Shown piece after piece: positions 3,445 to 23,006 of a stretch of 24,451 nt of DNA. Numbering within the stretch: position 1 is the stretch's first letter; the number at the start of each line of letters is the position of its first letter. A program made the translations under genes and the position numbers. The notes below the pieces were generated by a model. It searched no databases. It saw only the letters and a program-made list of their open reading frames with translations, and had not been told where the DNA came from. This DNA is from Desulfobacteraceae bacterium. GTDB taxonomy: Bacteria; Desulfobacterota; DSM-4660; Desulfatiglandales; HGW-15. The stretch is taken from NCBI GenBank assembly GCA_046538465.1, contig JBKHIW010000001.1, forward strand, positions 1-24,451, given 5' to 3'.

Positions 3445-3521
3445 CTCCTTCCCTTTCCGGCTTTTCCTGAACGAGCCCTGGATACCGGGCAGTCCGCGCT
3501 ATGTGCGGGCGGCCGCCCTGC

Positions 3522-3549
3522 ATCTTATTCAGCCGCCCTGCCCTGTCAA
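3522..3549 (-). promoter_or_regulatory. Candidate sigma70 promoter for the kinase-kinase-nadK-miaB operon
   Basis: Minus strand TTGACA (3549-3544), 16-nt spacer, TAAGAT (3527-3522), about 80 nt upstream of the 3444 start. Confidence 0.55.
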
Positions 3550-3667
3550 CCTTTTTATCTTCTGGTATCAGGACCTCTTCACTGTTGAAGGGCTTTGTGA
3601 TAACTACCTCTGTCCAGTGAAGCAAAATGCGGATCTCAGCGGATCCTGATTCCAGGGAGGGACTGTG

Positions 3668-4516: not shown

Positions 4517-4537
4517 TCTTAGAAATAGGAGGCGGTT

Positions 4538-5860
4538 ATGGAGCATGCCGACATCTTGGTGGAAAACGCAACCATACTCACTGTCGATCTCGATAACACC
4601 ATTATCCAGGGAGGCTCAATAGCTGTTCGCGGTGACACCATAATCCATGTGGGGTCCCCGGCAGGCAGCGAGTGGCGAGCGGAGACGAAAATCGACGCCA
4701 AGGGAGGAATAGTGCTTCCCGGACTGGTGAACGCCCATACCCATGCAGCCATGACCCTCTTCCGGGGATTGGCCGACGACCTGCCGCTGATGGAGTGGCT
4801 GACCGACTATATTTTTCCGGTGGAAAAACGCATGGACGCCGATTTTGTAAGGACAGGGAGCCTTCTAGCCTGCGCTGAAATGATCCTTTCAGGCACCACG
4901 ACGTTTTGTGACATGTATCTCTTCGAGGCCGAGACCGCACGTGCTGCCGAACAGGCCGGTATGCGCTGCGTGGTGGGAGAGGTGTTGTATGATTTCGACT
5001 CCCCTTCCTACGGAGACCTTGAAAACGGCTTCAAGACTACCGAGGCCCTGATAAGTGACTGGAGTGGCCATCCTCTGGTATCAGTGGCAGTGGAGCCCCA
5101 CTCCCTTTTTACATGCAGCCCGGATCTCCTCGCCAGGGCCCGCGAGATAGCCGAAGCCGGTCAAGTTCCAATGGCCATACACTTGGCAGAGACCGAGAAC
5201 GAGGTTCGGAGGATACGGGAGCAATACGGCAGGCTCCCTGTTGAGCACCTTGCTGAGCTGGGGCTCCTGGGACCGGACCTGATAGCGGCCCACTGCGTCC
5301 ACCTTGAGGAGCACGAAATCTCCATGTTGGCGGAAGCCGGGGTAAAAGTGGTCCACAATCCGGAGAGCAACATGAAGCTCGCCTCGGGCGTTGCGCCTGT
5401 AACCCGGCTCCTGGAAGCCGGGCTGACTGTATCCCTGGGGACCGACGGCTGCGCCTCCAACAACAATCTGGACCTCCTATGCGAGATGGATACCGCCGCC
5501 AAGCTCCATAAGGTGCACACAATGGACGCAACCGCCCTGAGCGCAGAAACTCTCCTGCGCATGGCCACCATAGACGGGGCAAAGGCCTTGGGTCTCGACC
5601 CGGTCATAGGCTCATTGGAGCCCGGCAAAAAGGCGGACATGATCATCCTGGATATCGACGCCCCTCATCTCACCCCTTTGTACAATCCCGCCTCTCATGT
5701 GGTCTACTCGGCCTCGGGAAGCGATGTGCGCTGCTCCATAATAAATGGACGGGTGGTGATGGAAAACCGCGTGCTTCTCACGTTGGCACTCCCTGAGATC
5801 CTGGAGAGGGTAAAGCTGAGGGCCGGTGACGTACGCACGTGGACGTCCAAAAAGGTATAA
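4538..5860 (+). CDS. mtaD: 5'-methylthioadenosine/S-adenosylhomocysteine (5'-deoxyadenosine) deaminase, amidohydrolase family
   Basis: NAHTHAAMTLFRG..DD..LMEWL..YIFP.E, HLAET, AHCVH, HNPESNMKLASG, LGTDGCASNN, GSLEPGKKAD; GGAGG RBS. Confidence 0.88.
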   Translation: MEHADILVENATILTVDLDNTIIQGGSIAVRGDTIIHVGSPAGSEWRAETKIDAKGGIVLPGLVNAHTHAAMTLFRGLADDLPLMEWLTDYIFPVEKRMDADFVRTGSLLACAEMILSGTTTFCDMYLFEAETARAAEQAGMRCVVGEVLYDFDSPSYGDLENGFKTTEALISDWSGHPLVSVAVEPHSLFTCSPDLLARAREIAEAGQVPMAIHLAETENEVRRIREQYGRLPVEHLAELGLLGPDLIAAHCVHLEEHEISMLAEAGVKVVHNPESNMKLASGVAPVTRLLEAGLTVSLGTDGCASNNNLDLLCEMDTAAKLHKVHTMDATALSAETLLRMATIDGAKALGLDPVIGSLEPGKKADMIILDIDAPHLTPLYNPASHVVYSASGSDVRCSIINGRVVMENRVLLTLALPEILERVKLRAGDVRTWTSKKV

Positions 5861-5914: not shown

Positions 5915-7048
5915 CTATTGATTCGGTCTGACAAACCTGATGAGAGTGATCTCAGGAGGGCTGAGTATCCGAACCGGCGGGCCCCAGGTACCTGCCCCCC
6001 TGTTTACGTAAAGGACGGAGCCGTTCCCTGCATCATAGCGGCCTTTGAAGTAGGGGAAAACGCGTGAGACCAGCAGACCAAAAGGAAAAATCTGCCCGCC
6101 GTGCGTGTGTCCTGAGAGCTGAATGTCGAAACTCCCGGGAGCGCCCTCTTCCAGCTCAGGTCTGTGCGTAAGAAGAATCACCAGCCGGTCCTCATCGATC
6201 CGGGAAAGCATGGGGCGGGCGCGGGGAGGCGGCTCGACACCCCTCTCAGACCCGGTCGGGTCGTCGATACCGACCACCGCCAGCCAGGAGGAAGGCATGG
6301 CGGCAAGGTTGCGAAGGACGGTGAAGTCCGCCCGTTCCATAAAGTCCACGCTCCATTCCACCCCGGCGTAGAATTCATGGTTGCCCAACACGGCATACTT
6401 GCCGAGAGGGGGGGATAACTTTCTGAAGACGGCCTGGATCAGGTCCGGCCGTCTGCTTCCCCTGTCCACCAAATCCCCGGTCGCCGCGATCAAGTCCGGG
6501 CGGAGCAAGGCCGTCCGTTTCGCTACGCGCTCGGCCTCCTTCAGACTGTTTATCTCTCCCAGATGCAAATCGGATATTTGGACCACCCGCAGTTCGTTGA
6601 CCTCCGGGGGCAGCTTGGAGGTCTGCACCTCCAGCTCCTCCACCCGAAGATCGCCTGCCTCCAAGTGACCGTAAGCACTTGCGATCAGTGCAGCCCCTGC
6701 GCACGCTGCAAATCCTGCCCTGACCGTACGCCGGTCCCACGGCCTGCCTGCGAGGGCAAAAAGGCCCCTCACGACATCAACCGCACCCTGTGCACAAACA
6801 AATAGAAAAATCAGGGCCATCCACTCATACCCGATATAGAGAGTCAAAACAGGTAGAGGGCCTTCCCAGATTGAACCCAAAACCCTTCCAAGGACCGGAG
6901 AGATCCACATGAACCCCAACCAGGCGAGAACAACAGCCCTTCCGCGTGCTCCCAAAGGACGGCAGGCGATCAGTTTGAGATAAAGGTAGGTGTGGGCAAG
7001 GGCGTAGAGGCCCAAGACCGCTGTTAGAAAAATGACAAAAGAGGCCAT
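5915..7048 (-). CDS. Membrane-anchored calcineurin-like metallophosphoesterase (YkuE-like)
   Basis: N-terminal hydrophobic helices followed by SDLHLG, TGDLVDR, LGNHEFY, LLTHRP, LSGHTHGGQI. Start set to ATG 7048 (377 aa); the track's 7252 start would overlap the divergent gene and promoters. Confidence 0.88.
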   Translation of the reverse strand: MASFVIFLTAVLGLYALAHTYLYLKLIACRPLGARGRAVVLAWLGFMWISPVLGRVLGSIWEGPLPVLTLYIGYEWMALIFLFVCAQGAVDVVRGLFALAGRPWDRRTVRAGFAACAGAALIASAYGHLEAGDLRVEELEVQTSKLPPEVNELRVVQISDLHLGEINSLKEAERVAKRTALLRPDLIAATGDLVDRGSRRPDLIQAVFRKLSPPLGKYAVLGNHEFYAGVEWSVDFMERADFTVLRNLAAMPSSWLAVVGIDDPTGSERGVEPPPRARPMLSRIDEDRLVILLTHRPELEEGAPGSFDIQLSGHTHGGQIFPFGLLVSRVFPYFKGRYDAGNGSVLYVNRGAGTWGPPVRILSPPEITLIRFVRPNQ

Positions 7049-7061
7049 ATCGCTTGATCCT

Positions 7062-7089
7062 TTGAAATGCCTGCGAAATATATTAGAAT
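7062..7089 (+). promoter_or_regulatory. Candidate sigma70 promoter for the ATP-grasp/PBP/lipoprotein operon
   Basis: TTGAAA (7062-7067), 16-nt spacer, TAGAAT (7084-7089). Confidence 0.55.
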
Positions 7090-7105
7090 AAAAAAGATTG
7101 GTCAA
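7077..7105 (-). promoter_or_regulatory. Candidate sigma70 promoter for the metallophosphoesterase
   Basis: Minus strand TTGACC (7105-7100), 17-nt spacer, TATATT (7082-7077). Confidence 0.55.
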
Positions 7106-7109
7106 ACTC

Positions 7110-7133
7110 GCATCTGAAATGAGCATCTGAAAT
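7110..7133. repeat. 11-bp direct repeat GCATCTGAAAT x2 (13-bp period)
   Basis: Exact copies at 7110-7120 and 7123-7133, between the promoters and ATG 7139. Confidence 0.8.
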
Positions 7134-7138
7134 AGCGC

Positions 7139-7939
7139 ATGCAGCCTCCCTTTACTCCTCACCTCTACTTCATTGCCTTGGGCAGCCGTCTTCGCGGCGT
7201 GCCCGAGGTTCGTACCTTGGGAGTCAGGCCCAACTTTCAAGACTACACCCAAGAGGAACGGGAGGAGATACTCAACGCATCGCTGGTCCTTTATCCCACG
7301 CGGAATTACGCCCAGTTTCTTACTACCATGGGAAGGCCCATTTTCCCGAGCCTGGAGACCTACTTATACGCAGATGAGAAGATCCTTCAGAGCACCCTTT
7401 TCCAGATGCTGGGCATAAATCATCCATTGACCCGGTTCTATTACCCCCTTCATCATCACCGGATTCTTGAGGACTTCTCGTTCCCATTCGTTGCCAAACT
7501 ACCCAGGGCCTCCTCCCGCGGCCGAGGCGTCTTCCTGGTGGAAAAACCGGCGGATCTATGGAATTATCTGGACCGCACCAAGGTGGCTTATATTCAGGAA
7601 TTTCTCCCCCACAATCGAGATTTGAGGGTGGTGCTGATCAACTATGACCCAGTACTGGCGTATTGGCGCAAGGCGGCTCCCGGAAGCTTCAAGACCAACC
7701 TTTCCCAGGGCGGCTCCCCGGATTTCGACGGAATTCCGGAAGACATTTTGGCCTTTGCCTCAGAATGCGCCTGGAAGTGCAGATTCAATGATGTTGGGCT
7801 TGACTTCATTTACTGCCATGGAAGATGGTATCTAATCGAGGCGAACATGATGTACGGTCGCAAAGGCCTTTCTCTAAGGGGAATGGATCTCAAGGAAATC
7901 ATTCGCGGGAAACTGGTTAATGGCAAAATCACTCCGTGA
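7139..7939 (+). CDS. RimK-like ATP-grasp (alpha-L-glutamate ligase family) protein
   Basis: DEK, FPFVAK..ASSRGRGVFL, YIQEFL..RDLRV, FKTNLSQGG, GLDF, YLIEAN; 266 aa. Confidence 0.8.
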   Translation: MQPPFTPHLYFIALGSRLRGVPEVRTLGVRPNFQDYTQEEREEILNASLVLYPTRNYAQFLTTMGRPIFPSLETYLYADEKILQSTLFQMLGINHPLTRFYYPLHHHRILEDFSFPFVAKLPRASSRGRGVFLVEKPADLWNYLDRTKVAYIQEFLPHNRDLRVVLINYDPVLAYWRKAAPGSFKTNLSQGGSPDFDGIPEDILAFASECAWKCRFNDVGLDFIYCHGRWYLIEANMMYGRKGLSLRGMDLKEIIRGKLVNGKITP

Positions 7940-10900
7940 CGCCACCGGCCTTTATATCGGGGAGCGGCCCAAGGGCTTCAAGGTTTGGAAATTCTTCCTG
8001 TATTTGGCTCTCGCCGCTCTAGTCGGCCTCCTCGCCCTGTTGGGCGCGGTCTATTATGATGTCTCCAGGGAGGCCGCCTCCCGTATACAGGAAGGGGTCA
8101 TCCGTCGGGTTATCTTTTCAGAAAGCCCTGTCTACTATGACGACGGAGAGACCCTCATAGGTGTCTTTTTTGAGAAAACTCACAGGCGCTACATTGATTA
8201 CGAAGACATCCCCAAGGTCTTTGTAAAGGCCATAGTAGCGGCGGAAGACAAAAGTTTTTTCGACCACCCCGGATTCGACCTAACCGCTATAATGCGTGCC
8301 TTTGTAGCCAATATCAAAGCCGGGCGTGTGGTCCAGGGGGGAAGCACCATCACCCAGCAGACCGCCAAGAACGTCTTCGAGAGGCAGCGGCGTTCATATA
8401 CAGCAAAGCTGAAGGAGCTCTTTCAGGCCCTGCTCCTGGAGCGTAAATACTCTAAGGAGCAGATCTTGGAGTTTTATGTGAACCAGTTCTTTGTGAGCGG
8501 CTTCGGACGGGGCCTTCAAATCGCCTCCAGGTATTTTTTCGACAAGGACGCCAAGGACCTGGACTTGGTGGAAAGCGCATTCATCGCAGGCTGTGTCAAG
8601 GGGCCCAACAGGTACAACCCCTTTATTAAGAAGACCGAGACCGAAAAAGAGAGGGCCCTTCGGGAGGCTGAGACTCGCAAGGACTATGTCCTGGATCAAA
8701 TGCTGGCTCTTAATTTCATAACAAGCGAGGAACACCGGCGTGCCTGCGACAGGGAGATACCCTTCAAAGAGGGGCGGGTGACTTATCGTTTGAACGTAAT
8801 ACTGGACTATGTCCGCGAGCAGCTCCAGTCACCCTATTTCCGGACGGTATTGGAAGAGGAAGGCATAGAAAACATAGCCACCTCGGGGATAAGAATCTAT
8901 ACATCAATAAACCGAGAACTCCAAAGAGGTGCACTAAAGGGCCTGAGGACCCATCTTCCCAAGCTTGACGTGCAGCTCCTGGGATATGACGGGAAGGCGC
9001 TCCAGGACCGTTACGCCGGACTCCGGGAGAACCCTTCGAAGCTCGGAGACGAAGGCCTGCCGCTTATAGCCCGAGTGGACAGCGTGAACGCAGACCCGGA
9101 CCGGCTGAATTTGAGAGTCTCTTGGGAAGACGGGGAGGGCCTCATTGAGTTTCAAGGGATGAGAGAGCTGGGCAAGGCATGGATTCAGGGCCGAAGAGGC
9201 CCATGGGCCTCATTCGAAAAGGAGGAAGCTAAGGAGTTTCTTGGCTTGTTCGAAGAGGGGGATCTGGTCGCGGTGGCCCCTGATGAAGGACAAGGAACGA
9301 ACGGTCTTTGTCTTACCCAGATCCCTGAGCTGGAAGGGGGTACAATAATACTTCAAGATGGAATGATACGAGCCATGGCGGGTGGATATTTCAACCATCA
9401 CTTCAATCGTGCGGCAGACGCCAAACGGCAGATGGGCTCTGCATTCAAGCCACTGGTCTACACAGCAGCCCTTCAGCTCAAATGGAATCCCCTGGATCTC
9501 TTGAAGAACACAAAGGATGCATTCAATTTCGAGAAGACATCCTATCTCCCCAACCCGGACCATGAACCGCAATCCGAGGAGGTGTCCATGGCCTGGGCCG
9601 GGGTGAAATCGGAAAACCTTGCCACAGTTTGGCTTCTGTATCATCTCACCGATCATCTGAATCTCAGCGAGTTTCGGGAGGTGGTAAAGCATATCGGGCT
9701 GCATCGACGTTCCGATGAATCCTACCAGGACTATGCAGGAAGGATCAGAGATCGGCACGGAGTGGTGGTTAATGAAGACGCATTGATGGAGGCGTCCTTT
9801 ATAGAGGCGAAAAGGGCGATTGAATCCGATGTGATATTTGCGGGGCACGCAGAGGCCCTTAACAACCTCAGGAGACTCCATTACCAGGTAGACAAAGAAG
9901 CCCTGGATCTCAAGGACCCCGCCCACAGGCGGATCCTGCGCTTGAATTATCAGAGATTGAAGGACCTCAATATTGAGCTAAAGGAGATCCTTAAGCGAAC
10001 CAGGACCCTTTTGAACCGGGTGCCCACCGGCCGGGAGGCTGACGAGAGGAGCCATGGCGAGCTCTCCGCCTTGCTGGGCAGATTTGTGATCGAAGACCGA
10101 GGTGGACAGGGTCGGAGGCGGGTGGTGTTTCCGTTTACAGCCTCAGGGGAAAGAGAAGGCCTCGGAAACCCCTTGTCCTTGGACCAGGTCCTGAGGGACC
10201 CTGGACTGCTCGATCCAGGACGGATATGGATCGACGCCCTTTTGCCCTCGGAGGTGCTCGATTTCCTTCGCTCGAGCATGGTGAGCATATACAAGGACCT
10301 GAAGTCACAGCAACGGTATGACTTGGAACTGCTTTACAGGATCAGGGATTTCAGGACCTTGGTAAATCTCCATTATGTGCTGGAATTGGCCCGTCGGAGC
10401 GGGATTTCCACTCCCCTGGACCCGGTTCTCTCGTTTCCCTTAGGTTCAAATGCAGTAGGCATAGCCGAGATGGCCCGGGCTTACCATACTATGATGTGCG
10501 GCCGGGTACGGCCCTTGGGCCGAACCCTGTCCGAGGAGATGATCCCGGTGATCAAACGGATCGAGGACCGTCAAGGCGAGCTGATTTGGGAATACCAAGG
10601 AGGTGGACTGGAGATCCTCTCGCCGAAGATTTCCGGCATGATCTCGGAGATTCTTCGCCTGGTGATAGAGGAGGGAACCGGAAAACGTGCGAGAGGGAAA
10701 GTCCTTTTATCTGTGCCCGCCGGGGACGGTGACGAGATAGAGCTTCCCATCCCGGCCTTCGGAAAGACCGGAACGGCCAACCGTTTCACCAATTCCGCGT
10801 TCATGGGATTCGTACCTGGACCCGGCGGGGAAAGCAACGCCCTGGACAGGGAGAGAGGGTTTGTTATAGCTACATATGCAGGATTTGACGATAACAGCCC

Positions 10901-11237
10901 CATGAAAAGTGATCGTATTACTGTATACGGCTCTTCCGGCGCCCTTCCCATATGGATCGATACAGCCAATGCAGTGGTCAACAGCCCCTTTTATAGGAAA
11001 GGGCTTCGCCTGGCCGATCTGGCATTCGAGATTCGCCCCGGGCTTCTTAAAAGGCCCGAGGGCCTCCATCCCGTGGAGGTGGACGCAGCAACCGGACTGC
11101 CTGTCAGGAGGAAAGAGGAAAGGTCACCGGGAAGGACTGTATACATACTATCGAATGTGAATGTGGAAGACGGAACCGTGCGGCTCAACAGAGTGTTCGA
11201 GCCCATACAAGGAGCCGGTGAATATGGGAAAGACTAA
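7920..11237 (+). CDS. Class A penicillin-binding protein (PBP1A-like transglycosylase/transpeptidase) with large insertions
   Basis: N-terminal TM anchor. GT51 motifs EDKSFFDHPG, GGSTITQQTAK, KEQILEFYVN. Transpeptidase motifs SAFK (9438), SEN (9609), KTG (10764). 1105 aa. Confidence 0.9.
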   Translation: MAKSLRDATGLYIGERPKGFKVWKFFLYLALAALVGLLALLGAVYYDVSREAASRIQEGVIRRVIFSESPVYYDDGETLIGVFFEKTHRRYIDYEDIPKVFVKAIVAAEDKSFFDHPGFDLTAIMRAFVANIKAGRVVQGGSTITQQTAKNVFERQRRSYTAKLKELFQALLLERKYSKEQILEFYVNQFFVSGFGRGLQIASRYFFDKDAKDLDLVESAFIAGCVKGPNRYNPFIKKTETEKERALREAETRKDYVLDQMLALNFITSEEHRRACDREIPFKEGRVTYRLNVILDYVREQLQSPYFRTVLEEEGIENIATSGIRIYTSINRELQRGALKGLRTHLPKLDVQLLGYDGKALQDRYAGLRENPSKLGDEGLPLIARVDSVNADPDRLNLRVSWEDGEGLIEFQGMRELGKAWIQGRRGPWASFEKEEAKEFLGLFEEGDLVAVAPDEGQGTNGLCLTQIPELEGGTIILQDGMIRAMAGGYFNHHFNRAADAKRQMGSAFKPLVYTAALQLKWNPLDLLKNTKDAFNFEKTSYLPNPDHEPQSEEVSMAWAGVKSENLATVWLLYHLTDHLNLSEFREVVKHIGLHRRSDESYQDYAGRIRDRHGVVVNEDALMEASFIEAKRAIESDVIFAGHAEALNNLRRLHYQVDKEALDLKDPAHRRILRLNYQRLKDLNIELKEILKRTRTLLNRVPTGREADERSHGELSALLGRFVIEDRGGQGRRRVVFPFTASGEREGLGNPLSLDQVLRDPGLLDPGRIWIDALLPSEVLDFLRSSMVSIYKDLKSQQRYDLELLYRIRDFRTLVNLHYVLELARRSGISTPLDPVLSFPLGSNAVGIAEMARAYHTMMCGRVRPLGRTLSEEMIPVIKRIEDRQGELIWEYQGGGLEILSPKISGMISEILRLVIEEGTGKRARGKVLLSVPAGDGDEIELPIPAFGKTGTANRFTNSAFMGFVPGPGGESNALDRERGFVIATYAGFDDNSPMKSDRITVYGSSGALPIWIDTANAVVNSPFYRKGLRLADLAFEIRPGLLKRPEGLHPVEVDAATGLPVRRKEERSPGRTVYILSNVNVEDGTVRLNRVFEPIQGAGEYGKD

Positions 11238-12633
11238 ACTGGGAAAAATCACGCTTCTCCTGTCTTTCATTCTTCTGGTGGGGACGGCCGGGGGCTGTGC
11301 ACCCGGCCGGATCGGCTTCCCCGCAGCTGAAAAGGAGATCCGGACAGAAGAACCCTTGCTCGACCCGTCCGAGGTGGAAAGGCGTATAGACCGATTGGAA
11401 GAGGCCTTGACAAAGGATCTTGACGAAGAAAGAGAGGCCGAGCTTCAAAGACTGCTCTCGGACTACCGGAAGACACGCTCTTATCTCGGCCGTCCCGGTC
11501 GAAGCGGTGATGAAAAACATGTAGTAAAGATTCTTTATCATGCGCTGACCAGACTGGAGGAGAGCTACCTGGAGATGTCGCGGGCGGTCCGCCCTTCCCC
11601 TCCGGAAATAACGGGCGCTCTCTCAGATCAAAAAGAGCGCATCTTGAACGCTTATGTGGCCGGCGACCACGGAGCGGTGTTGAGCGGGCTCGATGATCTG
11701 GAGGCTGAATACGGGCCCGGCTATTTGGACCCGGCTCTTGGAGTGATCAAGGCCTTATCACTTGCAGAGCAGGGGAAAAAGGCCGAGGCCTTGGATCTGG
11801 CAGAAAAGATCCTCCCCGAGCTCGAAACCCGTCCCGGGTCGGCGGTGCTCAGAGGTAAGATGGTTTCCTGGTATGTGGAAACGAATCGTCCGGATCAGGC
11901 CCGTGCTCAGTATGAAAAGCTGGTGGATGATCTGCAGGAGACAAAGGTGGCGATCAACCGCGCGGGGAGAACACTGGCCCGCTTAGGCATTGAATCCCGG
12001 ACCGATATTGAAGCGATGGACGAGCCTAAGCCTCCACCCGGGGGGAAGGGGCAAACTGAACTCACCGGGACAGAGGATTTGATTAAGGAAGTAAACAGGC
12101 TCATAAGTGAGGGGGCCTTCCATGAGGCCAAGCTTCTCCTGGTCAGACACCGTATACGCTCGGCAGGCGAGGAAGACCGCGCGCTTATCGACCGGGCCAT
12201 GAAACGGGTGGAGGAGGCCGAAGCTCAGGCTGGAGAAGAGGATGAGCCTGCAGTTCAACGGGAATCCGGTTCGGGAGAGGCCTTGACCGATGCCCGCCGC
12301 CTGATTGAACAAGAGGACTACGAGGGGGCGCTGGCCAGCATAGAGGAGATGGAGCGGGAGGAGGCGTCTCTTGCCGCACTCCGCGACCTCAGGCGGGAGG
12401 CCACTGAGAAACTGATTCACAAGGAGCGTGAAGAGGCCGCCCAGCTCTATCTTCAAGCCAGAAACGCCAAGGACGAAAAAGAGAAAAAGGCCCTGCTTGC
12501 ATCTTGCTACAAGATTCTGCAAGGGCTTCTGGAGCGCTTCCCGGGCACGGATATGACGGAAAAGCTGGAGCGCAACCTGAAGACCGTACGAGAGGAAATG
12601 AAGTCTGTGGGCATGTCTCCTCCGCACCCCTGA
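11224..12633 (+). CDS. Putative lipoprotein, alpha-helical/TPR-like, function unknown
   Basis: From ATG 11224 (GGAG upstream): MGKTKLGKITLLLSFILLVGTAGG-C25, i.e. basic N-terminus, hydrophobic core and lipobox. Mature part is E/K/R/L/A-rich and helical. Overlaps the PBP stop by 14 nt. Confidence 0.7.
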   Translation: MGKTKLGKITLLLSFILLVGTAGGCAPGRIGFPAAEKEIRTEEPLLDPSEVERRIDRLEEALTKDLDEEREAELQRLLSDYRKTRSYLGRPGRSGDEKHVVKILYHALTRLEESYLEMSRAVRPSPPEITGALSDQKERILNAYVAGDHGAVLSGLDDLEAEYGPGYLDPALGVIKALSLAEQGKKAEALDLAEKILPELETRPGSAVLRGKMVSWYVETNRPDQARAQYEKLVDDLQETKVAINRAGRTLARLGIESRTDIEAMDEPKPPPGGKGQTELTGTEDLIKEVNRLISEGAFHEAKLLLVRHRIRSAGEEDRALIDRAMKRVEEAEAQAGEEDEPAVQRESGSGEALTDARRLIEQEDYEGALASIEEMEREEASLAALRDLRREATEKLIHKEREEAAQLYLQARNAKDEKEKKALLASCYKILQGLLERFPGTDMTEKLERNLKTVREEMKSVGMSPPHP

Positions 12634-12635
12634 TA

Positions 12636-13784
12636 TTAAAGGAATCTCGCCCTGGTGATGGCATCCCTGCCGAATCGGGTTCGAATTTCATCCACGGCCT
12701 GCTCCAGGGACTCCCACGCCTTGAGTGGATCATGGCTCTCGAAAAGGCTCAATTGCAAGTGTCCGTCTCGTACCGGAGAGAGGTTTGAAAGACCGATACC
12801 TATCAATCGGTATTTGTCTCTTCCAGAGGCCGTCCTTTGGAGGAGCCTTACCCCTTCCCTGTATATGACATAGGTCGAGGCGGTGGGCCGGGCAAGAGTC
12901 GCACTCCTGGTCAAGGAGCCGAAATCCGCCTTCTTCAGCTTGAGCGTCACGGTCACGCCTTGGAGGCCCTTCATTCTGGCCCTGGCACCCACGATCTCGG
13001 ATTGAGCCAGGAGTTCCGCCTTCAACCTTTCCGCGTCAGCGGTGTCCTCACACAGGGTCTCCTCGCTGCTGATGGACTTGACCTCGGACCTCTTTTCCAC
13101 CGGGGTTTCGTCCATCCCCCGGGCCAGTTCCAGGAGGCGGCTACCCGGCCCCCCGGGGCGTCCTTGAAGCCTGAGTACGTCGCCCAATGTCCTCAGCCCC
13201 TCGGATTCCAGGGCCGCTGCAGTCTTGGCCCCCACGCCCGGCACCTTTCTGAGTTCGAGTCCGTGGACTACCGAGTCCACATCCTCAGGCCTTATTACCG
13301 TGAGGCCGTCAGGTTTTTCCATATCCGAGGCCACCTTGGCCAGAAACCTGTTGGGGGCCACTCCCACCGATCCGGTGAGCGAGGTGCGCTCCATTATACG
13401 CCGCTTGATCTCTCTTCCCGTCTCCACCGGAGGCCCGTTCAAACGCCTGGATCCGGTGAGGTCGATATACGCCTCATCGATTGAGACCTGCTCAACTGAA
13501 GGCGAGAAATCCTTCAGCACCTCCATGACCTTGCAGGAGACCTCTTTGTATCGCGCCATGCGCACTGGAAGGAAAATGCCGTGAGGACACAACCGCTTTG
13601 CCTGGAAGATCGGCATGGCCGATCGTACCCCGAAGACCCGCGCCTCGTAGCTGGCCGTAGAGACCACCCCACGCCGGCCTGTCCCGCCTACCACAACCGG
13701 CTTCCCCCTGAGCTCGGGCCGGTCGAGCTGCTCCACCGCCGCATAAAAGGCGTCCATGTCCACGTGAAGGATCACCCGTTGCAT
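12636..13784 (-). CDS. dinB: DNA polymerase IV (Y family)
   Basis: HVDMDAFYAAVE, STASYEAR, SIDEAY, FLAKVASD..KPDG, VPGVG, and a C-terminal beta-clamp motif QLSLF. Confidence 0.95.
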   Translation of the reverse strand: MQRVILHVDMDAFYAAVEQLDRPELRGKPVVVGGTGRRGVVSTASYEARVFGVRSAMPIFQAKRLCPHGIFLPVRMARYKEVSCKVMEVLKDFSPSVEQVSIDEAYIDLTGSRRLNGPPVETGREIKRRIMERTSLTGSVGVAPNRFLAKVASDMEKPDGLTVIRPEDVDSVVHGLELRKVPGVGAKTAAALESEGLRTLGDVLRLQGRPGGPGSRLLELARGMDETPVEKRSEVKSISSEETLCEDTADAERLKAELLAQSEIVGARARMKGLQGVTVTLKLKKADFGSLTRSATLARPTASTYVIYREGVRLLQRTASGRDKYRLIGIGLSNLSPVRDGHLQLSLFESHDPLKAWESLEQAVDEIRTRFGRDAITRARFL

Positions 13785-15875: not shown

Positions 15876-16466
15876 TCAAAAAACCGCCGGCTTGCAGATC
15901 AACTCCCTGACCCTGAGGTCGAAGAGATGAAAGCTGTTTGCAGGCTTGAGCACCATTGCGGTATCGATCCCTGTTGAAGTTCCGCCTGTAGATATCACGT
16001 CCCTATCCGTTCGGATCAGCCCGGCGTCAGCGGCCATGAGAGCAAGCTCCACCGCCACCTTTGTACCTTGGCCGAAGGTGCGATAAGTGTAGGCGATTAT
16101 CTCATCGAGTTGGTATGTGGAGAGCTTGTCGCGCACCCCTCTCCCCACTCCTCCGAATGCGTGCTGGCAGGTGAGGACCTTGACTCCCGAGGCCTCCAGC
16201 CTCTCTCTCGCTTCTTGGCTGAGTTCCTGGTGATCGGGCTCTCGAAAGCCGGTGACATGGCTCACCGCCACAATCCGGATAGCGGAAGGAAAAACCTCCA
16301 GCGCCTCGAACGCGGTCTTTCCGCTGCAGGTAGGGATAAGGACTTTTTCTATGCCCAGCTCTCCAGCCCTTTGAACAACCATCTCCAGGACCCGGCGGGT
16401 ATTCTTCGGGCCCGGCTTGTCGAAATACTCACAAGATACCTGCCGGCAACCGGTAATATCAGACAT
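15876..16466 (-). CDS. Stand-alone pyruvate-kinase C-terminal-domain-like protein (COG1751/MTH1675-like)
   Basis: YFDKPGPKNT..VL, VSHVTGF, HAFGGVGR, RTFGQGTKVAVE..LMAADAG, GGT..GIDTA; GAGGAGG RBS. Confidence 0.75.
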   Translation of the reverse strand: MSDITGCRQVSCEYFDKPGPKNTRRVLEMVVQRAGELGIEKVLIPTCSGKTAFEALEVFPSAIRIVAVSHVTGFREPDHQELSQEARERLEASGVKVLTCQHAFGGVGRGVRDKLSTYQLDEIIAYTYRTFGQGTKVAVELALMAADAGLIRTDRDVISTGGTSTGIDTAMVLKPANSFHLFDLRVRELICKPAVF

Positions 16467-16612: not shown

Positions 16613-18421
16613 TCAGCTCATATCCGCCCGGTTGAACGAAAGCTCTTCAGGCCACTCCCTGAAGTGCCCGTCCCATGGCCCTTTTGTACAGGCGTCGACC
16701 AGGATTTTCCTCCCTGAGACGCGGATATCCCGCTCGGCGTCCACATTGCTGCACGCCCTCCAAACCAGGCCTCGGTGGTCAAAGAGATCCACCCCTGAGT
16801 CGAACAGCACCAGGATGTTGAACGCCCGAGCAGCCTCCAGGCCGAAGAGCAGTTCTTCATAGTAGGAAGTGTTTCTGCCGGGGCCCCACTCCACACTGGC
16901 AAAGGCAAGCCCGTTTTTCATTGCCCCCTGCCCCCCATCCCAGGCCCTTGCATCCACCACCCCTGGCACCTGTTCCTTTATGGCATTCAAGGCCTTCAGC
17001 AGGGCCTCGCTTGACCGGTCGACCCCTTCGCAGCCAGGCTGCCTGGGAGGCTCTCCTTGGGCCCGGGATGTGAGGTCTATCCCGACCTTGCCTCCAAAGA
17101 CGGGCACGGGTGAGGCGTGGTCCAGTACGTCCAGCGGGCCCTTGCCCCTGATCAGGTCGGTCTCCGGGTCGAGCCGTTCCAAGATCAAGGCCGCGAGATG
17201 CAGGGGATCCCGAAGAGGGGTATCCGCATCCACTACTAGGACGGCCTTTGCCAGACTCATTTGGCCTTGACCCCATAGGCCGTAGATCGCCTGCCGGGCC
17301 TCTCCCGGGTATGATTTTTCCACTGCAACAACCACCAGGTTGTGAAAGACCCCTTCAAAAGGCAGCCAATGATCCTTGACCTGGGGAAGAAGCATTTGTA
17401 TCAGCGGCAGAAACAGCCGCTCTGTCGCCAATCCCAGATATGCGTCCTCCATCGGCGGAGGGCCCACCACCGTGGCGCAGTAAAGAGGATTACGCCTGTG
17501 GGTCAAGGCGGTTACATGAAATACGGGGTAGTCGTCGGGAAGGGAGTAGTAGCCGGTGTGGTCTCCAAAAGGCCCTTCCTTCCGGAATTCATCCGGATCC
17601 ACGTACCCTTCCAGCACGAACTCGGCCTCGGCCGGCACTTCCAGGTCGTTGGTCACGCACCTGGTCATTGAAACGTAGCGCCCCCTTATGAAACCAGCCA
17701 GCAATAGTTCGTCCACATTCCTGGGAAGGGGCGCGGTTGCTGCATATATGGTCGCGGGGTCGGCCCCCACGGCCACCGACACGGGCATCCTCCTGCCCGC
17801 CCTCCGGTATTCCTGAAAAAAATGCGCCCCGTCCTTGTGGGGATGCCAGTGCATTCCGGTGGTGGCGCGATCAAAGACCTGCATCCGGTACATCCCTACA
17901 TTCCTCTTGTCCGACACCAAGCTCCGGGTGAAGACGAGAGGGAGTGTTATGAAGGGGCCTCCGTCTCCGGGCCAGCAGTGGAGCACAGGAAGCTTTCGGA
18001 GATCCACGGAGTCCCCTTGGAGCACCACCTCCTGACACGGTGCGCGGCCCCGGTGCCGGCGTGGCAGAAAGCCGGCCATGGAAATCATAACGGGCAAGAG
18101 TCTGCGCGCGTCTCTCAGGCCCCTGGGTGGGGAGAGTGTGAGCAGAGATCGAAGTCTTTGCCCCAGCTGATCAAGATTCTCCACTCCCATAGCCATCGAG
18201 ATCCGTCTCATGCTCCCGAAAAGGTTGGTGGCGGCTGGAAACGGCGATCCTTCAACCTGTTCGAAAAAAAGCGCCTTGCCCCCGCCGGGGCTCTTGGCCT
18301 CCTTGTCGGTCATCCGACTGATTTCCAGGTGGGAAGAGACCTTTCGTCCTATTCTCTTGAGCTCGCCGGCTTGCTCCAGGCACTGGACGAACTCCCCTAT
18401 GTTCGCATACCACGTCTTCAT
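16613..18421 (-). CDS. mqnL: UbiD-family decarboxylase, menaquinone (futalosine pathway) type
   Basis: ATNLFGS, WPGDGGPFITLP, NVGMYRMQ, MHWHPHKDG, EGPFGDHTGYY, ATVVGPPPMED, GPLDVLDH, KVGIDLT; 602 aa with a C-terminal extension typical of the long form. Next to an MqnP-like domain. Confidence 0.88.
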   Translation of the reverse strand: MKTWYANIGEFVQCLEQAGELKRIGRKVSSHLEISRMTDKEAKSPGGGKALFFEQVEGSPFPAATNLFGSMRRISMAMGVENLDQLGQRLRSLLTLSPPRGLRDARRLLPVMISMAGFLPRRHRGRAPCQEVVLQGDSVDLRKLPVLHCWPGDGGPFITLPLVFTRSLVSDKRNVGMYRMQVFDRATTGMHWHPHKDGAHFFQEYRRAGRRMPVSVAVGADPATIYAATAPLPRNVDELLLAGFIRGRYVSMTRCVTNDLEVPAEAEFVLEGYVDPDEFRKEGPFGDHTGYYSLPDDYPVFHVTALTHRRNPLYCATVVGPPPMEDAYLGLATERLFLPLIQMLLPQVKDHWLPFEGVFHNLVVVAVEKSYPGEARQAIYGLWGQGQMSLAKAVLVVDADTPLRDPLHLAALILERLDPETDLIRGKGPLDVLDHASPVPVFGGKVGIDLTSRAQGEPPRQPGCEGVDRSSEALLKALNAIKEQVPGVVDARAWDGGQGAMKNGLAFASVEWGPGRNTSYYEELLFGLEAARAFNILVLFDSGVDLFDHRGLVWRACSNVDAERDIRVSGRKILVDACTKGPWDGHFREWPEELSFNRADMS

Positions 18422-18466: not shown

Positions 18467-20125
18467 TCACCCGGCAGCGTGCCTGGCCACTTCATCGCAC
18501 AGGACTCCCAGAAAAAGAACCACCGAAATCGCACTGTTTACATGGAAAAAGGCGACGTGTATCCGCTCCAGGTCATAGGGCCTTACAATTCTGTGCTCCG
18601 CTGCCAGCAGGGCCCCTATCACCGCAAGGGCCCCCAGGTATACAGGACCGAGATCGAAGATCACCATAAGCAGGAACAGGCAGACAAAGGCCGCCAGGTG
18701 AAGCAATGAAGAGATAAAAAAAGCTGTCCTTATCCCGAATCGTGCCGGGATAGAGAGTAGCCCCGCCCGGCGGTCATAATCCAAATCCTGACAGGCGTAA
18801 AGTATGTCGAAGCCTGCAATATAGGCCAAGAGGGCCCCGGACAGGACCAGTATCCCTGGATCCAAATCACCGGTGACCGCGATCCAGGCCCCGACCGGGG
18901 CCAAGGAGATGGCGAAACCTAGATAAAGATGGGTGAATACAGTGAATCTCTTTGTGTAAGAGTAGGAGAAGAGTATCATCAAGACCGGGAAGGCCAATAT
19001 AAAGCAAAGCTTGCTGATCATCGCAGCGGATAATAAAAAAAGAGCCGAGAATCCCGCAACAAACAGGGAGGCCTGGGTGAAGGAGATCTCTCCGGCTGGG
19101 AGGGCCCTGTTCGCGGTTCTCGGGTTCTCCCGGTCATAGGTCCTATCCACTATACGGTTGAATCCCATGGCTGCAGATCTCGCCCCCACCATGGCGGCAA
19201 GTATCCAAAAAATCAGGCCCGGGGTTATTTGGTGCTCCCGTTGGGCCAGTACCACGGCGGACAAGGCAAAGGGCAGGGCAAAGACCGTGTGGGAGAACTT
19301 GACCATCCGCCCGAAAACCGCCACGGCGTCTCCAAGTCCGCCCTCCTGCGTGCACACGAGCCGATTCCTGCCTGACTCCAGATACTTCCATGTGCATAGT
19401 ATCCGCTCCAAGTAGTTGAAGACCTCATATATGATTACTCCCAAGAGGCTCATCCCCATGATACCGACAAACATCTGCTCATAGGCGAAGCGTCCCCAGG
19501 AGTCCATGATCAAGAATCCCAGTCCCCTGTCAGTGGCAAAGGACTCCACGAAAAAAAGAACGGCGATCCCCGTGCCCGTGCCTATTCTGAGTGCGGTGAA
19601 TCCGCCTGGCAGGGCCGCGGGCATCACCACGTGGCGGATCACGTCCAGGCCGGAGCCCCCCAATGAGCGCAGTGAGTCCACATACTTTCGGTCAAGGCCG
19701 GCCACCGAGTCGCGCGTGGCCACCAATACCTGATAGCCTATGATCATGCTGATCATGAAGACCTTGGAGATATCTCCGAGACCGAATATGATAAGAAAAA
19801 TCGGAAGAAGTACAATCTTAGGTATGGGGTATGTCAAGAATACGGCCGGCGAGAGCAGCTTATCGGCCCTTTGGTGAAAACCCAGAAGAACCCCGGTCGG
19901 AAAAGCCACCGTCCACGCAAGAGCCATGGCCGCACCCACCCTGAACGCGCTGGCGCCTAGATGCCTCCAGAACATACCCTCCTTTACGGCCAAGCCAAAG
20001 GCGGCAAAGGCCTGCTCCGGGGGCGGGAGCACGTTGGAGGAAAGGCCCCATGATAAAAGCTTCCACCCGCCTACCAACACGGCCACCGTGAGCGCATAAC
20101 GCATGATAGGCCCTGTCTCCCTCAT
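18467..20125 (-). CDS. Fusion protein: SsuC/NitT-type ABC permease (N-terminal) + MqnP/UbiA-like prenyltransferase (C-terminal)
   Basis: One uninterrupted ORF; ATG 20125 overlaps the ATPase TGA (ATGA); 552 aa. Permease part: LPPP, HL.AS..RV, PIPKIVLLP, EAA-like loop VDSLRSLG, MPAALP. UbiA part from about 19306: MVKFSHTVFALPFA, GARSAAMGFNRIVDRTYDRENPRTANRALPAG, YSYTKRFT, YACQDLDYD. Confidence 0.85.
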   Translation of the reverse strand: MRETGPIMRYALTVAVLVGGWKLLSWGLSSNVLPPPEQAFAAFGLAVKEGMFWRHLGASAFRVGAAMALAWTVAFPTGVLLGFHQRADKLLSPAVFLTYPIPKIVLLPIFLIIFGLGDISKVFMISMIIGYQVLVATRDSVAGLDRKYVDSLRSLGGSGLDVIRHVVMPAALPGGFTALRIGTGTGIAVLFFVESFATDRGLGFLIMDSWGRFAYEQMFVGIMGMSLLGVIIYEVFNYLERILCTWKYLESGRNRLVCTQEGGLGDAVAVFGRMVKFSHTVFALPFALSAVVLAQREHQITPGLIFWILAAMVGARSAAMGFNRIVDRTYDRENPRTANRALPAGEISFTQASLFVAGFSALFLLSAAMISKLCFILAFPVLMILFSYSYTKRFTVFTHLYLGFAISLAPVGAWIAVTGDLDPGILVLSGALLAYIAGFDILYACQDLDYDRRAGLLSIPARFGIRTAFFISSLLHLAAFVCLFLLMVIFDLGPVYLGALAVIGALLAAEHRIVRPYDLERIHVAFFHVNSAISVVLFLGVLCDEVARHAAG

Positions 20126-20844
20126 GCCGCCAACTCCCGGCGGACCTTGCTCACGCATTCGAAGAACTCCGGCCGGGTCCGCAGACCTGGTTCGCCAAAG
20201 CCCGGGTTCTCCACCAACGCCTTGACTCGAGCCGGGCGGTCGGTGAGGATCAAAACCCTCGCGCCAAGAAAAACCGCCTCCTCCACGCTGTGGGTCACCA
20301 CCACATAAGTCAGTCGGCGTCTGGTCCATGTCTCCAGCAAGGTGTTCTGCAGATTCTCCCGGGTAATCGCGTCCAAGGATGAAAAGGGCTCGTCCATCAA
20401 GAGGACTTCCGGCTCCACGGCCAAGGCGCGGGCTATCGCGACCCGCTGCTTTTGACCTCCGCTCAGTTGAACCGGGTATCTCTGCTTGAGCCCGGAAAGA
20501 CCCAGCTCTTTCAGCAGGGGCTCCGCCAGGGCCCTCATCCTTTCCTTGGAGGTCCTTCGTATCCTCAGGCCCAGGGTCACATTGTCGTAAACATTCTTCC
20601 AGGGAAACAGACCAAAGTCCTGAAGTATAAACGAGACCTCACAGTCCTTTCCCCGCCCCACATTCACCTCGCCCGAGGTAGGTTTCATCAGTCCTGCCAG
20701 TATATAGAGGAGCGTGGTCTTACCGCAACCAGAGGGGCCTATCACCGCCACTGTCTGCCCCTGGGCTACGGAAAAACCGATATCCTCCAGCACCGCCCCG
20801 TCCCTTGGATCATAGGTCTTGGAGAGGCCGCCCACCCTGATCAT
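20122..20844 (-). CDS. ABC transporter ATP-binding protein (SsuB/TauB/NitT type)
   Basis: GPSGCGKT, LSGGQKQR, LLMDEPFSSLD, VTH. ATG 20844 overlaps the binding-protein TGA (ATGA). Confidence 0.92.
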   Translation of the reverse strand: MIRVGGLSKTYDPRDGAVLEDIGFSVAQGQTVAVIGPSGCGKTTLLYILAGLMKPTSGEVNVGRGKDCEVSFILQDFGLFPWKNVYDNVTLGLRIRRTSKERMRALAEPLLKELGLSGLKQRYPVQLSGGQKQRVAIARALAVEPEVLLMDEPFSSLDAITRENLQNTLLETWTRRRLTYVVVTHSVEEAVFLGARVLILTDRPARVKALVENPGFGEPGLRTRPEFFECVSKVRRELAA

Positions 20845-21794
20845 CGGACCTCCCCCTGCCATACCATCTCCCTGTAGGAAGGGAGCTTGTCGACAAGGCC
20901 GCGGGAAGACATCCATCCCCCCACCTCTTCCAAGTCCTTTATCGGGGGCACCCTGGCATCCGGGAAGAGCGGCACCCTGTAAGCCTCTCCCACTTGCTCC
21001 GGGAACCTGGTCCGTCTGACCAGTAGGTCGCGGTAGGCCTCGGGGTTGCGGTTTATTCGACGGACCGCCCGACGGTAGGCCCGGACAAAGGCGGGGCCTG
21101 CATTCCCACCTCGCTGGAGAAGCTCGTTAGTCAATGCGACTACCGTGAGCGTGGTATCCAGCCCCCGGTCATCCAAGACCACCCGCCCTCCCTGCTGCTC
21201 GGCCAGAGTTAACAGGGGCTCGGGGAGAAGCGCTGCAGACACTCTGTCGGCCAGCAGGACCTGCAGCCTCACCGGGATCTTTTTGATTTCCTCCTTTACC
21301 ACAAAGCCCTCTTCCAGACCCTCCCTTTCAAGCAGGCGGTCCAAAAGGTATTCGATAATCGTGGCCCGCGATATGGCCACTCTCTTTCCCTCGAGATCCC
21401 TGTAGGTTCGTATGCCGCTCCCGGGCGCACCCACCACCCCGAACATCCGGTGGTCTGAATTTGTGCGAAAGGCAGTGGCCACGATCCTGACCTCAGCTCC
21501 CGCCCCTGCCAGCAGCAAGGTGTTGAGCAGATCGCCGAAGCAGCCGTCCAAGCGCCCCGCTTGTAGGGCGACGTCCCTTTCCATAGCGCTTTGAAAATAG
21601 ATCAGCTCCACTTCCAGCCCCTGCTCCTCGAATAAACCTTGTTCCTCTGCCGCTAGCAGGGGAAGAGTGTCCACCACCGGCAGCAGACCCAGGCGCACCG
21701 GGCCTCCGGCCGCGGGCGGTGATGGGAAAAGGAACAAGGCCAGGAGAAAGACCGGTCCTGAAATCCACTTCCCAACCGATCCTTTGCTTTTCAT
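20841..21794 (-). CDS. ABC transporter substrate-binding protein (SsuA/NMT1-like)
   Basis: Signal peptide, then VRLGLLP..D.LPL..AEEQGLF..QGL.VEL, AL.AG.LDG, DLEGKRVA, PEP; GGAGG RBS; 317 aa. Confidence 0.88.
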   Translation of the reverse strand: MKSKGSVGKWISGPVFLLALFLFPSPPAAGGPVRLGLLPVVDTLPLLAAEEQGLFEEQGLEVELIYFQSAMERDVALQAGRLDGCFGDLLNTLLLAGAGAEVRIVATAFRTNSDHRMFGVVGAPGSGIRTYRDLEGKRVAISRATIIEYLLDRLLEREGLEEGFVVKEEIKKIPVRLQVLLADRVSAALLPEPLLTLAEQQGGRVVLDDRGLDTTLTVVALTNELLQRGGNAGPAFVRAYRRAVRRINRNPEAYRDLLVRRTRFPEQVGEAYRVPLFPDARVPPIKDLEEVGGWMSSRGLVDKLPSYREMVWQGEVR

Positions 21795-21869: not shown

Positions 21870-22259
21870 TCAATCAGTTGTCGCAGCCCCCTCACGAAGA
21901 TCAAAGCCCAGGCCGGGAGAGGTCCTGGGGAAGAGCGTCCCTTGCCTCAGTATAACCGCCCCGCACGAAGGATCGCCTCTCAGACCGAGATGTCCGTCCA
22001 AGTCGGCATAGTAAACGTTCCCCCTGGCCAGGGCGAAGTGTAGCCCGGCCGCGATTTCGAGCTCGGCTTCGTCCATGCACCCCACCATAACCTCCAGCCC
22101 TGCCGCCTTTCCCAAAAGGTCGTAAAGGGCCGTGTCCACTGCGGCAAGCGCCGAGGGATTCGCTGCAAGGCCCGGACGGAGCCTCTCAAGCAGCTTGGAG
22201 ATGCGCAGAGGGTCCCTCCCGTCCGGCAAAGGGGCGGCCGTTATATGCTTTATTCGCAC
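21870..22259 (-). pseudogene. Internally deleted dipeptide (L-Ala-D/L-Glu) epimerase-like enolase-superfamily gene
   Basis: 129-aa ORF joining a short N-terminus ([10 protein letters not shown]), the capping-domain helix ([22 protein letters not shown]) and the C-terminal segment (EVMVGCMDE...YADLDGH...PGLG). The barrel core with KxK and the D/E/D metal ligands is absent. Confidence 0.8.
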
Positions 22260-22262
22260 GGC

Positions 22263-23006
22263 TCAGTACCTTTTTTGATGGATCTCGTCCAGACTCAAAC
22301 GCTTGAGGTCTTCTATCAGGGCCACCAAATGCCGAATCATCAGCTCCCACATGCGCTCGCCCTTCTCCTTGGTCGCCTTGGTTGGATCGCCCAGGACACC
22401 GGTGGTCGAGATGCTGGCTGTATAGGCATACCAGCCTATGCTTCGTCTGGAAGAGAAGTTGAGGCAGCGGCTGGAAAACTCCGGTACGAACCGCTTCATC
22501 TTTTCCCGCCTCACCAAGGCAGGCCTGGCGGCCAGTGCTGTACTGGTCTCTATCTCCCCTGCATGGACGTCGTTGGGGGTATCGACCAGGGCGTATATGT
22601 CAGGGTCGCTGGTCTCTCCAGTATCCACACAGGTAAAGATGCGCGCGTCTCTGTTGATCTTCTGGGCGGCGAAGTGAAGCGACGGGCTGTTGCCGCCATG
22701 GCCGTTTATTATCACCAGCTTGGTGATCCCCTGTCTGGCCACGCTCATGCCGATTTCATATGCGAGCCGGCTCAATGTGTCAGGGCTGATTGCAACGGTC
22801 CCCTTAAAGCCTTCGTGGTGGTAGGAGACCCCATAGGCCACCAAAGGCAGGACCAAGGGCTTGGGATCAGAGCAGGCCCGGGCAAAGCCGCGGTGGGACG
22901 GCTGGCCGGCGCTCCGCCCCGGGGATGATCGAACCGGTAAGGCCTGTTGAAGGATGGATCCTTCAAGGGATCGAAATCGATCCATCTCCTGCCGCTCTTT
23001 AGCCAT
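22263..23006 (-). pseudogene. Creatininase-family amidohydrolase, 5'-truncated
   Basis: Recognisable from about 22885 down: LVLPLVAYGVSYHH, INGHGGN, HAGEIETS, GVLGDPTKAT.EKG. The N-terminal LPxGSxEQHGxHLPxxTD motif (metal ligands E, H, D) is missing. Confidence 0.8.

Follow-up and report, generated by a model that had tools for sequence, protein, structure and literature searches.

Why should the permease of an importer and a quinone-forming prenyltransferase be made as one polypeptide? This question is raised by a gene on the minus strand of a 24,451-nucleotide stretch of Desulfobacteraceae bacterium DNA (positions 1 to 24,451 of contig JBKHIW010000001.1, assembly GCA_046538465.1; referred to here as the window), in which the permease of an ATP-binding cassette (ABC) transporter continues in frame (positions 18467–20125) into a UbiA-family prenyltransferase resembling MqnP of the late futalosine pathway. 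The fusion is a new combination of known parts, and with the gene cassette that contains it, sulfate reducers and certain other anaerobes can probably take up the ring of menaquinone (vitamin K2) rather than synthesize it.

The open reading frame (ORF) as listed extends from 18467 to 20329, but 68 codons at its beginning are shared with the upstream ATPase gene; translation likely starts from the ATG at 20125, whose overlap with the stop codon of the ATPase reads ATGA (20122–20125). The product made from this ATG has 552 residues, with neither a stop nor a frameshift inside the gene. Pfam assigned BPD_transp_1 (PF00528) to residues 75–240 (E = 3.9e-17, 63 bits versus a cut-off of 26.4) and UbiA (PF01040) to residues 284–529 (E = 6.6e-53, 180 bits). 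When compared with the NCBIfam models, the C-terminal half passed TIGR01475, "UbiA-like polyprenyltransferase" (290 bits versus a cut-off of 181), and scored 228 to 251 bits on the three MqnP models versus 122 bits on the proteobacterial UbiA model; the N-terminal half matched the TauC, SsuC, and SaoP permease models, each below its cut-off. Foldseek paired the C-terminal half with Aeropyrum pernix UbiA (ApUbiA, 4od4; template modeling score of 0.87, root-mean-square deviation of 2.6) and the N-terminal half with CmpB (9u9z, score of 0.80) and NrtB (8wm8), the latter matches ranging from 0.75 to 0.81, and no solved chain in this search spanned both halves. The AlphaFold2 model of the fusion, calculated with the family alignment, had a mean predicted local distance difference test (pLDDT) value of 87.7 and a predicted template modeling (pTM) score of 0.63. 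It displayed six permease helices and, beyond a linker whose pLDDT fell below 50 at residues 254–261, a short amphipathic helix and then the nine helices of UbiA (residues 277–551). Since the number of permease helices is even, these helix counts would place the linker and both Asp-rich motifs, found where UbiA helices 2 and 6 end, on the cytoplasmic side of the membrane. Unfused sister permeases, described below, stop approximately eight residues past the sixth transmembrane helix, exactly at the start of the linker.

The best 120 matches to the fusion in a database of 5.8 billion proteins (∼545 residues, 50–98% identity) all carry both PF00528 and PF01040. More than 120 independent fused clusters were identified from NCBI, JGI, ENA, and Logan assemblies, with generic source annotations such as "UbiA-like polyprenyltransferase" or "4-hydroxybenzoate polyprenyltransferase", and clustering at 50% reduced the entire fused family to one representative and one fragment. 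The carriers include Desulfobacterales metagenome-assembled genomes (MAGs), the cultured Desulfatirhabdium butyrativorans, three Spirochaetota MAGs, a Chloroflexota MAG, and uncultured Methanomassiliicoccus archaea; the gene lies on long contigs in one Spirochaetota MAG (4.27-Mb contig) and in a 4.95-Mb metagenomic chromosome. Alignment of 30 diverse fused members revealed 65% mean column identity in both domains, with the linker of about 20 to 30 residues as the sole poorly conserved block. In these 30 sequences, residues G156, P169, A171, L172, and P173 of the permease EAA loop are invariant, D150 and S151 are nearly so, and residues N323, R324, D327, and D331 along with D440, D447, and D451 of the two Asp-rich UbiA motifs, NxxxDxxxD and DxxxD, are invariant, a pattern that indicates purifying selection on both domains. 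A preliminary description of this DNA had recognized an ABC permease joined in one frame to an intact MqnP/UbiA enzyme of compatible topology; the two Pfam domains, the uninterrupted frame, the uniformly fused best matches, and the predicted 6 + 9 transmembrane helices with a cytoplasmic linker all agree with that assignment, and the strings it quoted (..LCTWKYL, the linker ESGRNRLVCTQEGGLGD, NRIVDRTYD, and YACQDLDYD) are all present in the translation. A stop after ..WKYL in close relatives, which the same description had considered as a sign of an assembly error or a recent stop loss, is not seen, the best 120 matches all being fused.

Gene order was compared between fused and unfused genes by running a tblastn script over 121 fetched loci. 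Every fused locus examined encodes a binding protein, an ATPase, permease::UbiA, optionally UbiX and UbiE/MenG, and then UbiD (MqnL); this order was seen in Desulfobacterales, Spirochaetota, Chloroflexota, Methanomassiliicoccus, and unbinned contigs. The conserved cassette is an importer together with only the late steps of the futalosine pathway. At the N terminus of its binding protein, each fused locus encodes a signal peptide, a lipobox (Spirochaetota), or a membrane anchor (archaea); because these proteins are exported, the system faces outward and is an importer. About 70 unfused MqnP loci, with 51–64% identity to the UbiA domain of the fusion, instead displayed the order UbiA-UbiX-UbiD, and no ABC genes were detected within 6 kb of them except for three distant ATPase matches (26–29% identity, 3–5 kb away) that lacked any permease or binding-protein match. 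In the window, the binding protein belongs to the NMT1 (2.2e-16) and NMT1_2 (4.3e-15) families of Pfam and scored 107 bits, below the cut-off, on TIGR01728 (SsuA_fam), whereas the ATPase matched ABC_tran (7.6e-32) and was closest to NCBIfam models of the TauB, SaoA, and SsuB types. The ATPase start overlaps the binding-protein stop as a second ATGA (20841–20844), with GGAGG ahead, and the two overlaps indicate that the genes for the binding protein, ATPase, and permease are translationally coupled. The UbiD-family protein contains the UbiD_N, UbiD, and UbiD_C domains and exceeded the cut-off of the equivalog model TIGR03701 (mena_SCO4490; 616.5 versus 495.9 bits).

We consider it likely that the operon serves in salvage, with a soluble naphthoate head group being taken up by the importer and prenylated at the membrane. 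The exported NMT1/SsuA-type binding protein would capture a soluble naphthoate precursor outside the cell, most likely 1,4-dihydroxy-6-naphthoate, with which the early part of the futalosine pathway ends. A homodimeric importer of the NitT/TauT type, assembled from the ATPase and the permease half, would bring the naphthoate in, and the MqnP domain tethered to each permease would add the polyprenyl tail on the cytoplasmic side of the membrane. With prenylated flavin mononucleotide from UbiX, MqnL would then strip the carboxyl group, and MenG would methylate the ring to yield menaquinone. We infer what the substrate is, that the importer is a homodimer, and that the tether may bring a kinetic gain by trapping or channelling. 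The single permease gene suggests two prenyltransferases per homodimer, and channelling between the domains is plausible.

The strongest indication that this importer clade carries a quinone head group comes from relatives that do not contain the fusion. Four genomes of the same family (G007, G018, G012, and G460) encode a paralogous binding protein-ATPase-permease set followed by MenA, with a permease that is 39–42% identical to the fused one; MenG lies between the permease and MenA in two of the four loci (G007 and G018). The MenA proteins are bona fide family members (335.8 bits versus a cut-off of 264), and the cluster in G007 (L122, G007:C3:103000-119000, 6206–13482; the other loci are L010, L128, and L129) is followed by fumarate reductase genes, FrdA/FrdB. 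In a tree of the permeases, the fused and the MenA-linked types fall into one clade (support 99/98), which a long branch sets apart from the remaining NitT/TauT permeases that these genomes encode. Ring synthesis was likewise found to be absent in the related genomes with the MenA-linked cassette. One importer clade is thus tied to both of the enzymes that prenylate the isomeric naphthoates. This association suggests a division of substrates, with the 6-carboxy isomer used by the MqnP/MqnL type and the 2-carboxy isomer by the MenA type, and 1,4-dihydroxy-2-naphthoate is the candidate substrate of the sister cassette. As separate observations, a distant MenA-like gene (29–37% identity to MenA of G007) occurs in most genomes of the family, and a divergent MenA-like UbiA gene in G002 (G002:C11, L123, 223–3977; 121 bits versus a cut-off of 102), located 12 kb from the fused cassette, is convergent to an ABC transporter of the ABC_sub_bind/BPD_transp_2 type.

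We investigated the pathway context of the carriers by searching 15 whole genomes with the fusion for enzymes that build the ring in either known route to menaquinone. MqnA/D were not found in nine of them: the window's own genome and four relatives from its family that are 93–96% complete (together G000, G001, G002, G005, and G008), G423 (96% complete), G433, the Methanomassiliicoccus genome G437, and G441. MqnC/E also were not found in these nine genomes, whereas the positive control, G436, yielded 415 and 342 bits for these enzymes beside its MqnA/D, and MenB was not found in any of the nine. The window's genome consists of 404 contigs (median contig of 4.5 kb) and is 82% complete, so its absences are weak evidence and we rely instead on the relatives; five of the nine genomes are at least 93% complete. 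Late-step genes were retained, with UbiX found in 14 of the 15 genomes and MenG in all five carriers that were checked. DsrA was present in all five carriers from the window's family, including the window's own genome, which identifies them as sulfate reducers. Sulfate reducers normally depend on menaquinone. The closest unfused homologues, in contrast, come from genomes that encode MqnA/D in ten of ten cases. As the late-step genes are evidently selected for in genomes that lack ring synthesis, an outside source of the ring is needed, and the importer travels along with these genes.

Several observations weigh against the salvage function. MqnA/D are kept by six of the 15 carriers, and in G436, which was checked, MqnC/E are as well. 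(In the five of these six that were tested, however, the fusion is the sole UbiA/MqnP homologue, which speaks for the salvage function.) In addition, the family of the window's genome is poor in ring-forming genes whether or not the cassette is present, with 38 of 41 genomes lacking MqnA/D and 41 of 41 lacking MenB. For these reasons, a strict rule that presence of the fusion means absence of ring synthesis fails, and we use the pathway gap as support rather than as a correlation. The carriers may also possess an endogenous ring route of another kind. UbiX was not found in the fragmented genome of the window itself. None of the MqnP cut-offs was reached by the UbiA domain (MqnP_DT, 251.5 versus a cut-off of 430; MqnP_SCO4491, 232 versus 420; MqnP_Cj_Hp, 228 versus 375), these three being narrow "exception" models in NCBIfam and TIGR01475 being broader. 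Comparison of the binding protein with PDB sequences returned only weak matches (the best being 3qsl at 7e-6) and provided no hint of the ligand. Finally, AlphaFold2 did not predict confident packing of the two domains, as seen in the pTM score and the flexible linker, and with no fixed contact in the model, channelling is without structural support. The view in the preliminary description that an imported ring acid is prenylated agrees with the late-steps-only cassette, with the many carriers lacking ring synthesis, and with the MenA-linked sister clade, but that description had overlooked that six of the 15 carriers make the ring themselves. With regard to the three family genomes that have MqnA/D, one contains them as pseudogene fragments: MqnA/D-family pieces with in-frame stops at G004:C15:911-1361 and G004:C86:2507-2752 that look like relics of a lost futalosine pathway. 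Genus g19 alone in the family keeps intact MqnA/D, and there they lie beside an unfused MqnP.

A bolder version of the salvage function can be formulated, which we regard as unlikely when taken as a whole: transport would be truly coupled to biosynthesis, such that the oxidation-prone naphthoate passes from the ABC path to the tethered MqnP without ever entering a cytoplasmic pool; the importer clade, comprising the MqnP-fused and MenA-linked types, would underlie obligate cross-feeding of head groups among sulfate reducers, spirochaetes, and Methanomassiliicoccales methanogens of anoxic habitats; and the lipid-soluble electron carrier of the Methanomassiliicoccales would be salvaged menaquinone.

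A decidedly improbable alternative is that the importer brings in a different aromatic acid, such as 4-hydroxybenzoate or another hydroxyaromatic compound, for prenylation into a benzoquinone-type or novel lipid. Homologues of UbiA, UbiD, UbiX, and UbiE also participate in the synthesis of ubiquinone, plastoquinone, and methyl-plastoquinone, a ubiquinone pathway occurs in one class of Desulfobacterota (PMC13386864), the MqnP equivalog cut-offs were missed, and the carriers possess many crotonase-family genes that would fit with anaerobic degradation of aromatic or fatty acids. Opposing this idea, the UbiD protein scored above the MqnL equivalog cut-off and well under that for Escherichia coli UbiD, the UbiA domain resembled MqnP far more than proteobacterial UbiA according to the bit scores given above, and the closest unfused relatives reside in genomes with early futalosine genes. 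Furthermore, the cassette encodes one methyltransferase and no hydroxylase, which is enough for menaquinone but not for a benzoquinone.

We assign the same low probability to a third, unrecognized pathway to the naphthoate ring, in which case the importer would be an optional supplement or serve in recycling and the tether would have no special role. The retention of the fusion in the six carriers with early futalosine genes fits this proposal, as does the lack of both known ring routes in nearly the whole family; indeed, multiple genomes with neither route are reported in PMC13386864. Against this proposal, no extra genes are conserved with the cassette, and its flanks vary by locus. Moreover, both cassette types bring their own importer in exactly those genomes that are missing ring genes, and an archaeal methanogen lineage acquired only the importer and the late steps, which argues that the cassette is self-sufficient.

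The possibility that the importer substrate is unrelated to quinones (e.g., a sulfonate, taurine, nitrate or bicarbonate, or the thiamine pyrimidine), with the fusion being a neutral read-through that became fixed, appears very unlikely. The nearest models of the three transporter parts are indeed TauABC, SsuABC, and SaoAP, all scoring under cut-off, the binding protein offers no clue to its ligand, and no contact between the domains was predicted. These features are outweighed by the order of five to seven genes that stays the same from one bacterial phylum to another and in an archaeal order, at 50% identity, by the independent linkage of the sister permease clade to MenA (and to MenG in two of four loci), and by the retention of late-step genes in genomes without ring synthesis. 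The fusion also is the only MqnP in every carrier tested and hence is not a dispensable accident. Lastly, an artefact confined to the window's MAG, whether an assembly error or a recent loss of a stop codon, has a vanishingly small probability: despite the fragmentation of that MAG (404 contigs, 82% complete), it is ruled out by the more than 120 fused clusters in four assembly sources, the 4.95-Mb chromosome and 4.27-Mb contig, and the purifying selection on both domains.

The permease tree is compatible with a single origin of the fusion, with one clade of the fused type (76/84), whereas the tree of the UbiA domain separated the fused sequences into two groups within the Desulfobacterota MqnP radiation, and the approximately unbiased (AU) test rejected one fused UbiA clade (p = 0.0001, or p = 0.0036 with L057 included). 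The latter locus (L057, 5890–6927, from Desulfobacteraceae bacterium RAAP-1) encodes an unfused MqnP that is nested among the fused sequences as the sister of L042 (support 99). No permease is found upstream of it, where a sensor kinase and response regulator occupy the place of the ABC genes, and it may represent a secondary loss of the importer half. The trees may thus reflect either one fusion with later fission or domain exchange, or two fusions. That Spirochaetota and archaea also possess the cassette suggests that it has spread as a unit by horizontal transfer. Among other proteins, P0132 (721 aa), P0157 (722 aa), P0159 (535 aa), and P0223 (702 aa) possess an MqnP-like UbiA domain that is joined otherwise, at either end; these are fusion architectures different from permease::MqnP.

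Features of the cassette in the window (coordinates refer to the 24,451-nucleotide stretch)
Feature	Position	Strand	Description
Substrate-binding protein	20841..21794	-	317 aa, NMT1/SsuA family, N-terminal signal peptide
ABC ATPase	20122..20844	-	∼240 aa from ATG at 20844; ORF as listed reaches 20916
Permease domain of fusion	19376..20125	-	Residues 1-250; NitT/TauT type with six transmembrane helices and a conserved EAA coupling loop
Interdomain linker	19328..19375	-	Residues about 251-266; differs in length and sequence between family members, disorder predicted
MqnP-like UbiA prenyltransferase domain	18470..19327	-	Residues 267-552, nine transmembrane helices
Asp-rich motif NRIVDRTYD	19133-19159	-	Residues 323-331
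Asp-rich motif YACQDLDYD	18773-18799	-	Residues 443-451
Fusion stop codon	18467-18469	-	
MqnL, UbiD-family menaquinone-pathway decarboxylase	16613..18421	-	602 aa, begins 45 nt past fusion stop

The genes that flank the cassette in the window (creatininase-family, M29 peptidase, and PK_C-like) are not conserved near it elsewhere, and a KAS III/RppA-like gene that lies upstream of one distant locus is not conserved either. A C-terminal extension of about 150 residues in the UbiD protein was considered as a peculiarity and then dropped, since a length of about 600 residues is common to MqnL of the unfused Desulfobacterota clusters. Just 3′ of mqnL, a 196-residue protein (15876–16466, minus strand) has the pyruvate kinase C-terminal domain (PK_C) as its only domain and no NCBIfam match; it is not kept beside the cassette in other loci. 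On the other side, a 129-residue ORF (21870–22259, minus strand) matched only pieces of the N- and C-terminal domains of the mandelate racemase/enolase superfamily and probably is a truncated remnant of a dipeptide epimerase-like gene; it adjoins the creatininase-family gene (22263–23006). Two ORFs farther away, at 3428–4546 (minus strand, 372 aa) and 11161–12633 (plus strand, 490 aa), had no Pfam or NCBIfam match, and the second of these overlaps a gene for a class A penicillin-binding protein (7920–11237) at that gene's end.

The fusion family provides a concrete and testable candidate for the missing importer of soluble menaquinone precursors, and an unfused, MenA-linked sister clade accompanies it. 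The specificity for the ring would be readable from the attached enzyme, with MqnP and MqnL denoting the 6-carboxy and MenA the 2-carboxy isomer. If the salvage function is correct, the quinone ring would have to come from neighboring organisms for many of the sulfate reducers in this family, as well as for some spirochaetes and for methanogens of the Methanomassiliicoccus type. Such dependence would bear on cultivation and on MAG-based metabolic models, which otherwise would call the carriers quinone-free or quinone-complete. It also would bear on the membrane carrier used by Methanomassiliicoccales, whose ubiA and ubiE genes were assigned by Borrel et al. (PMC4153887) to a lipid-soluble carrier of unspecified nature. 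More generally, a permease that is covalently joined to a biosynthetic membrane enzyme is an unusual architecture for an ABC transporter.

The need for such an importer was anticipated. Ravcheev and Thiele (2016; PMC4746308) named MqnP, MqnL, and MqnM of the late futalosine pathway, proposed that genomes with only the late steps use soluble precursors, and noted that the importers were still to be annotated, a gap in the precursor-exchange hypothesis; under further directions, they proposed that genomes with only the last two steps, MenA and MenG, use external 1,4-dihydroxy-2-naphthoate. A 2026 survey of quinone pathways (PMC13386864) found the futalosine route to be dominant in Desulfobacterota, with some genomes having neither route, and mentions neither a transporter nor a fusion. 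Full-text searches of the literature revealed no description of a permease::MqnP fusion, in keeping with the suggestion in the preliminary description of an undescribed system, but the family itself is widespread in public data under generic names.

When compared with known systems, the UbiA domain of the fusion is like the unfused Desulfobacterota MqnP of mqnP-mqnM-mqnL clusters in its sequence (51–64% identity), in its two Asp-rich motifs, and in having MqnL directly next to it, with UbiX and UbiE in the cassette of relatives; it differs in being joined to an ABC permease, in being co-transcribed with a binding protein and ATPase, and in often occurring without MqnA-E. The cassette shares with the MenA- and MenG-only genomes (PMC4746308) the retention of late quinone steps without ring synthesis. 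That proposal, however, named no transporter, whereas here MqnP is the prenyltransferase; it forms part of the importer polypeptide and requires a decarboxylase as a separate protein. The transporter parts resemble those of the NitT/TauT importers (SsuABC, TauABC, NrtBCD, and CmpBCD; 8wm8 and 9u9z) in having one six-helix BPD_transp_1 permease with an EAA loop, an NMT1/SsuA binding protein, and an ATPase. Unlike those systems, the permease described here bears a C-terminal biosynthetic enzyme and belongs to a distinct clade that includes the MenA-linked importers, and its presumed substrate is an aromatic hydroquinone acid rather than an inorganic anion or sulfonate. Modification of an imported solute at or near its transporter, which keeps the solute from escaping, has precedents in group translocation by the phosphotransferase system, vectorial acylation by FadL/FadD, and the pairing of PnuC with NadR. 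In those cases of transport-coupled trapping the enzyme is a separate protein or a component of energy coupling, whereas in this cassette the prenyltransferase resides within the ABC permease polypeptide itself.

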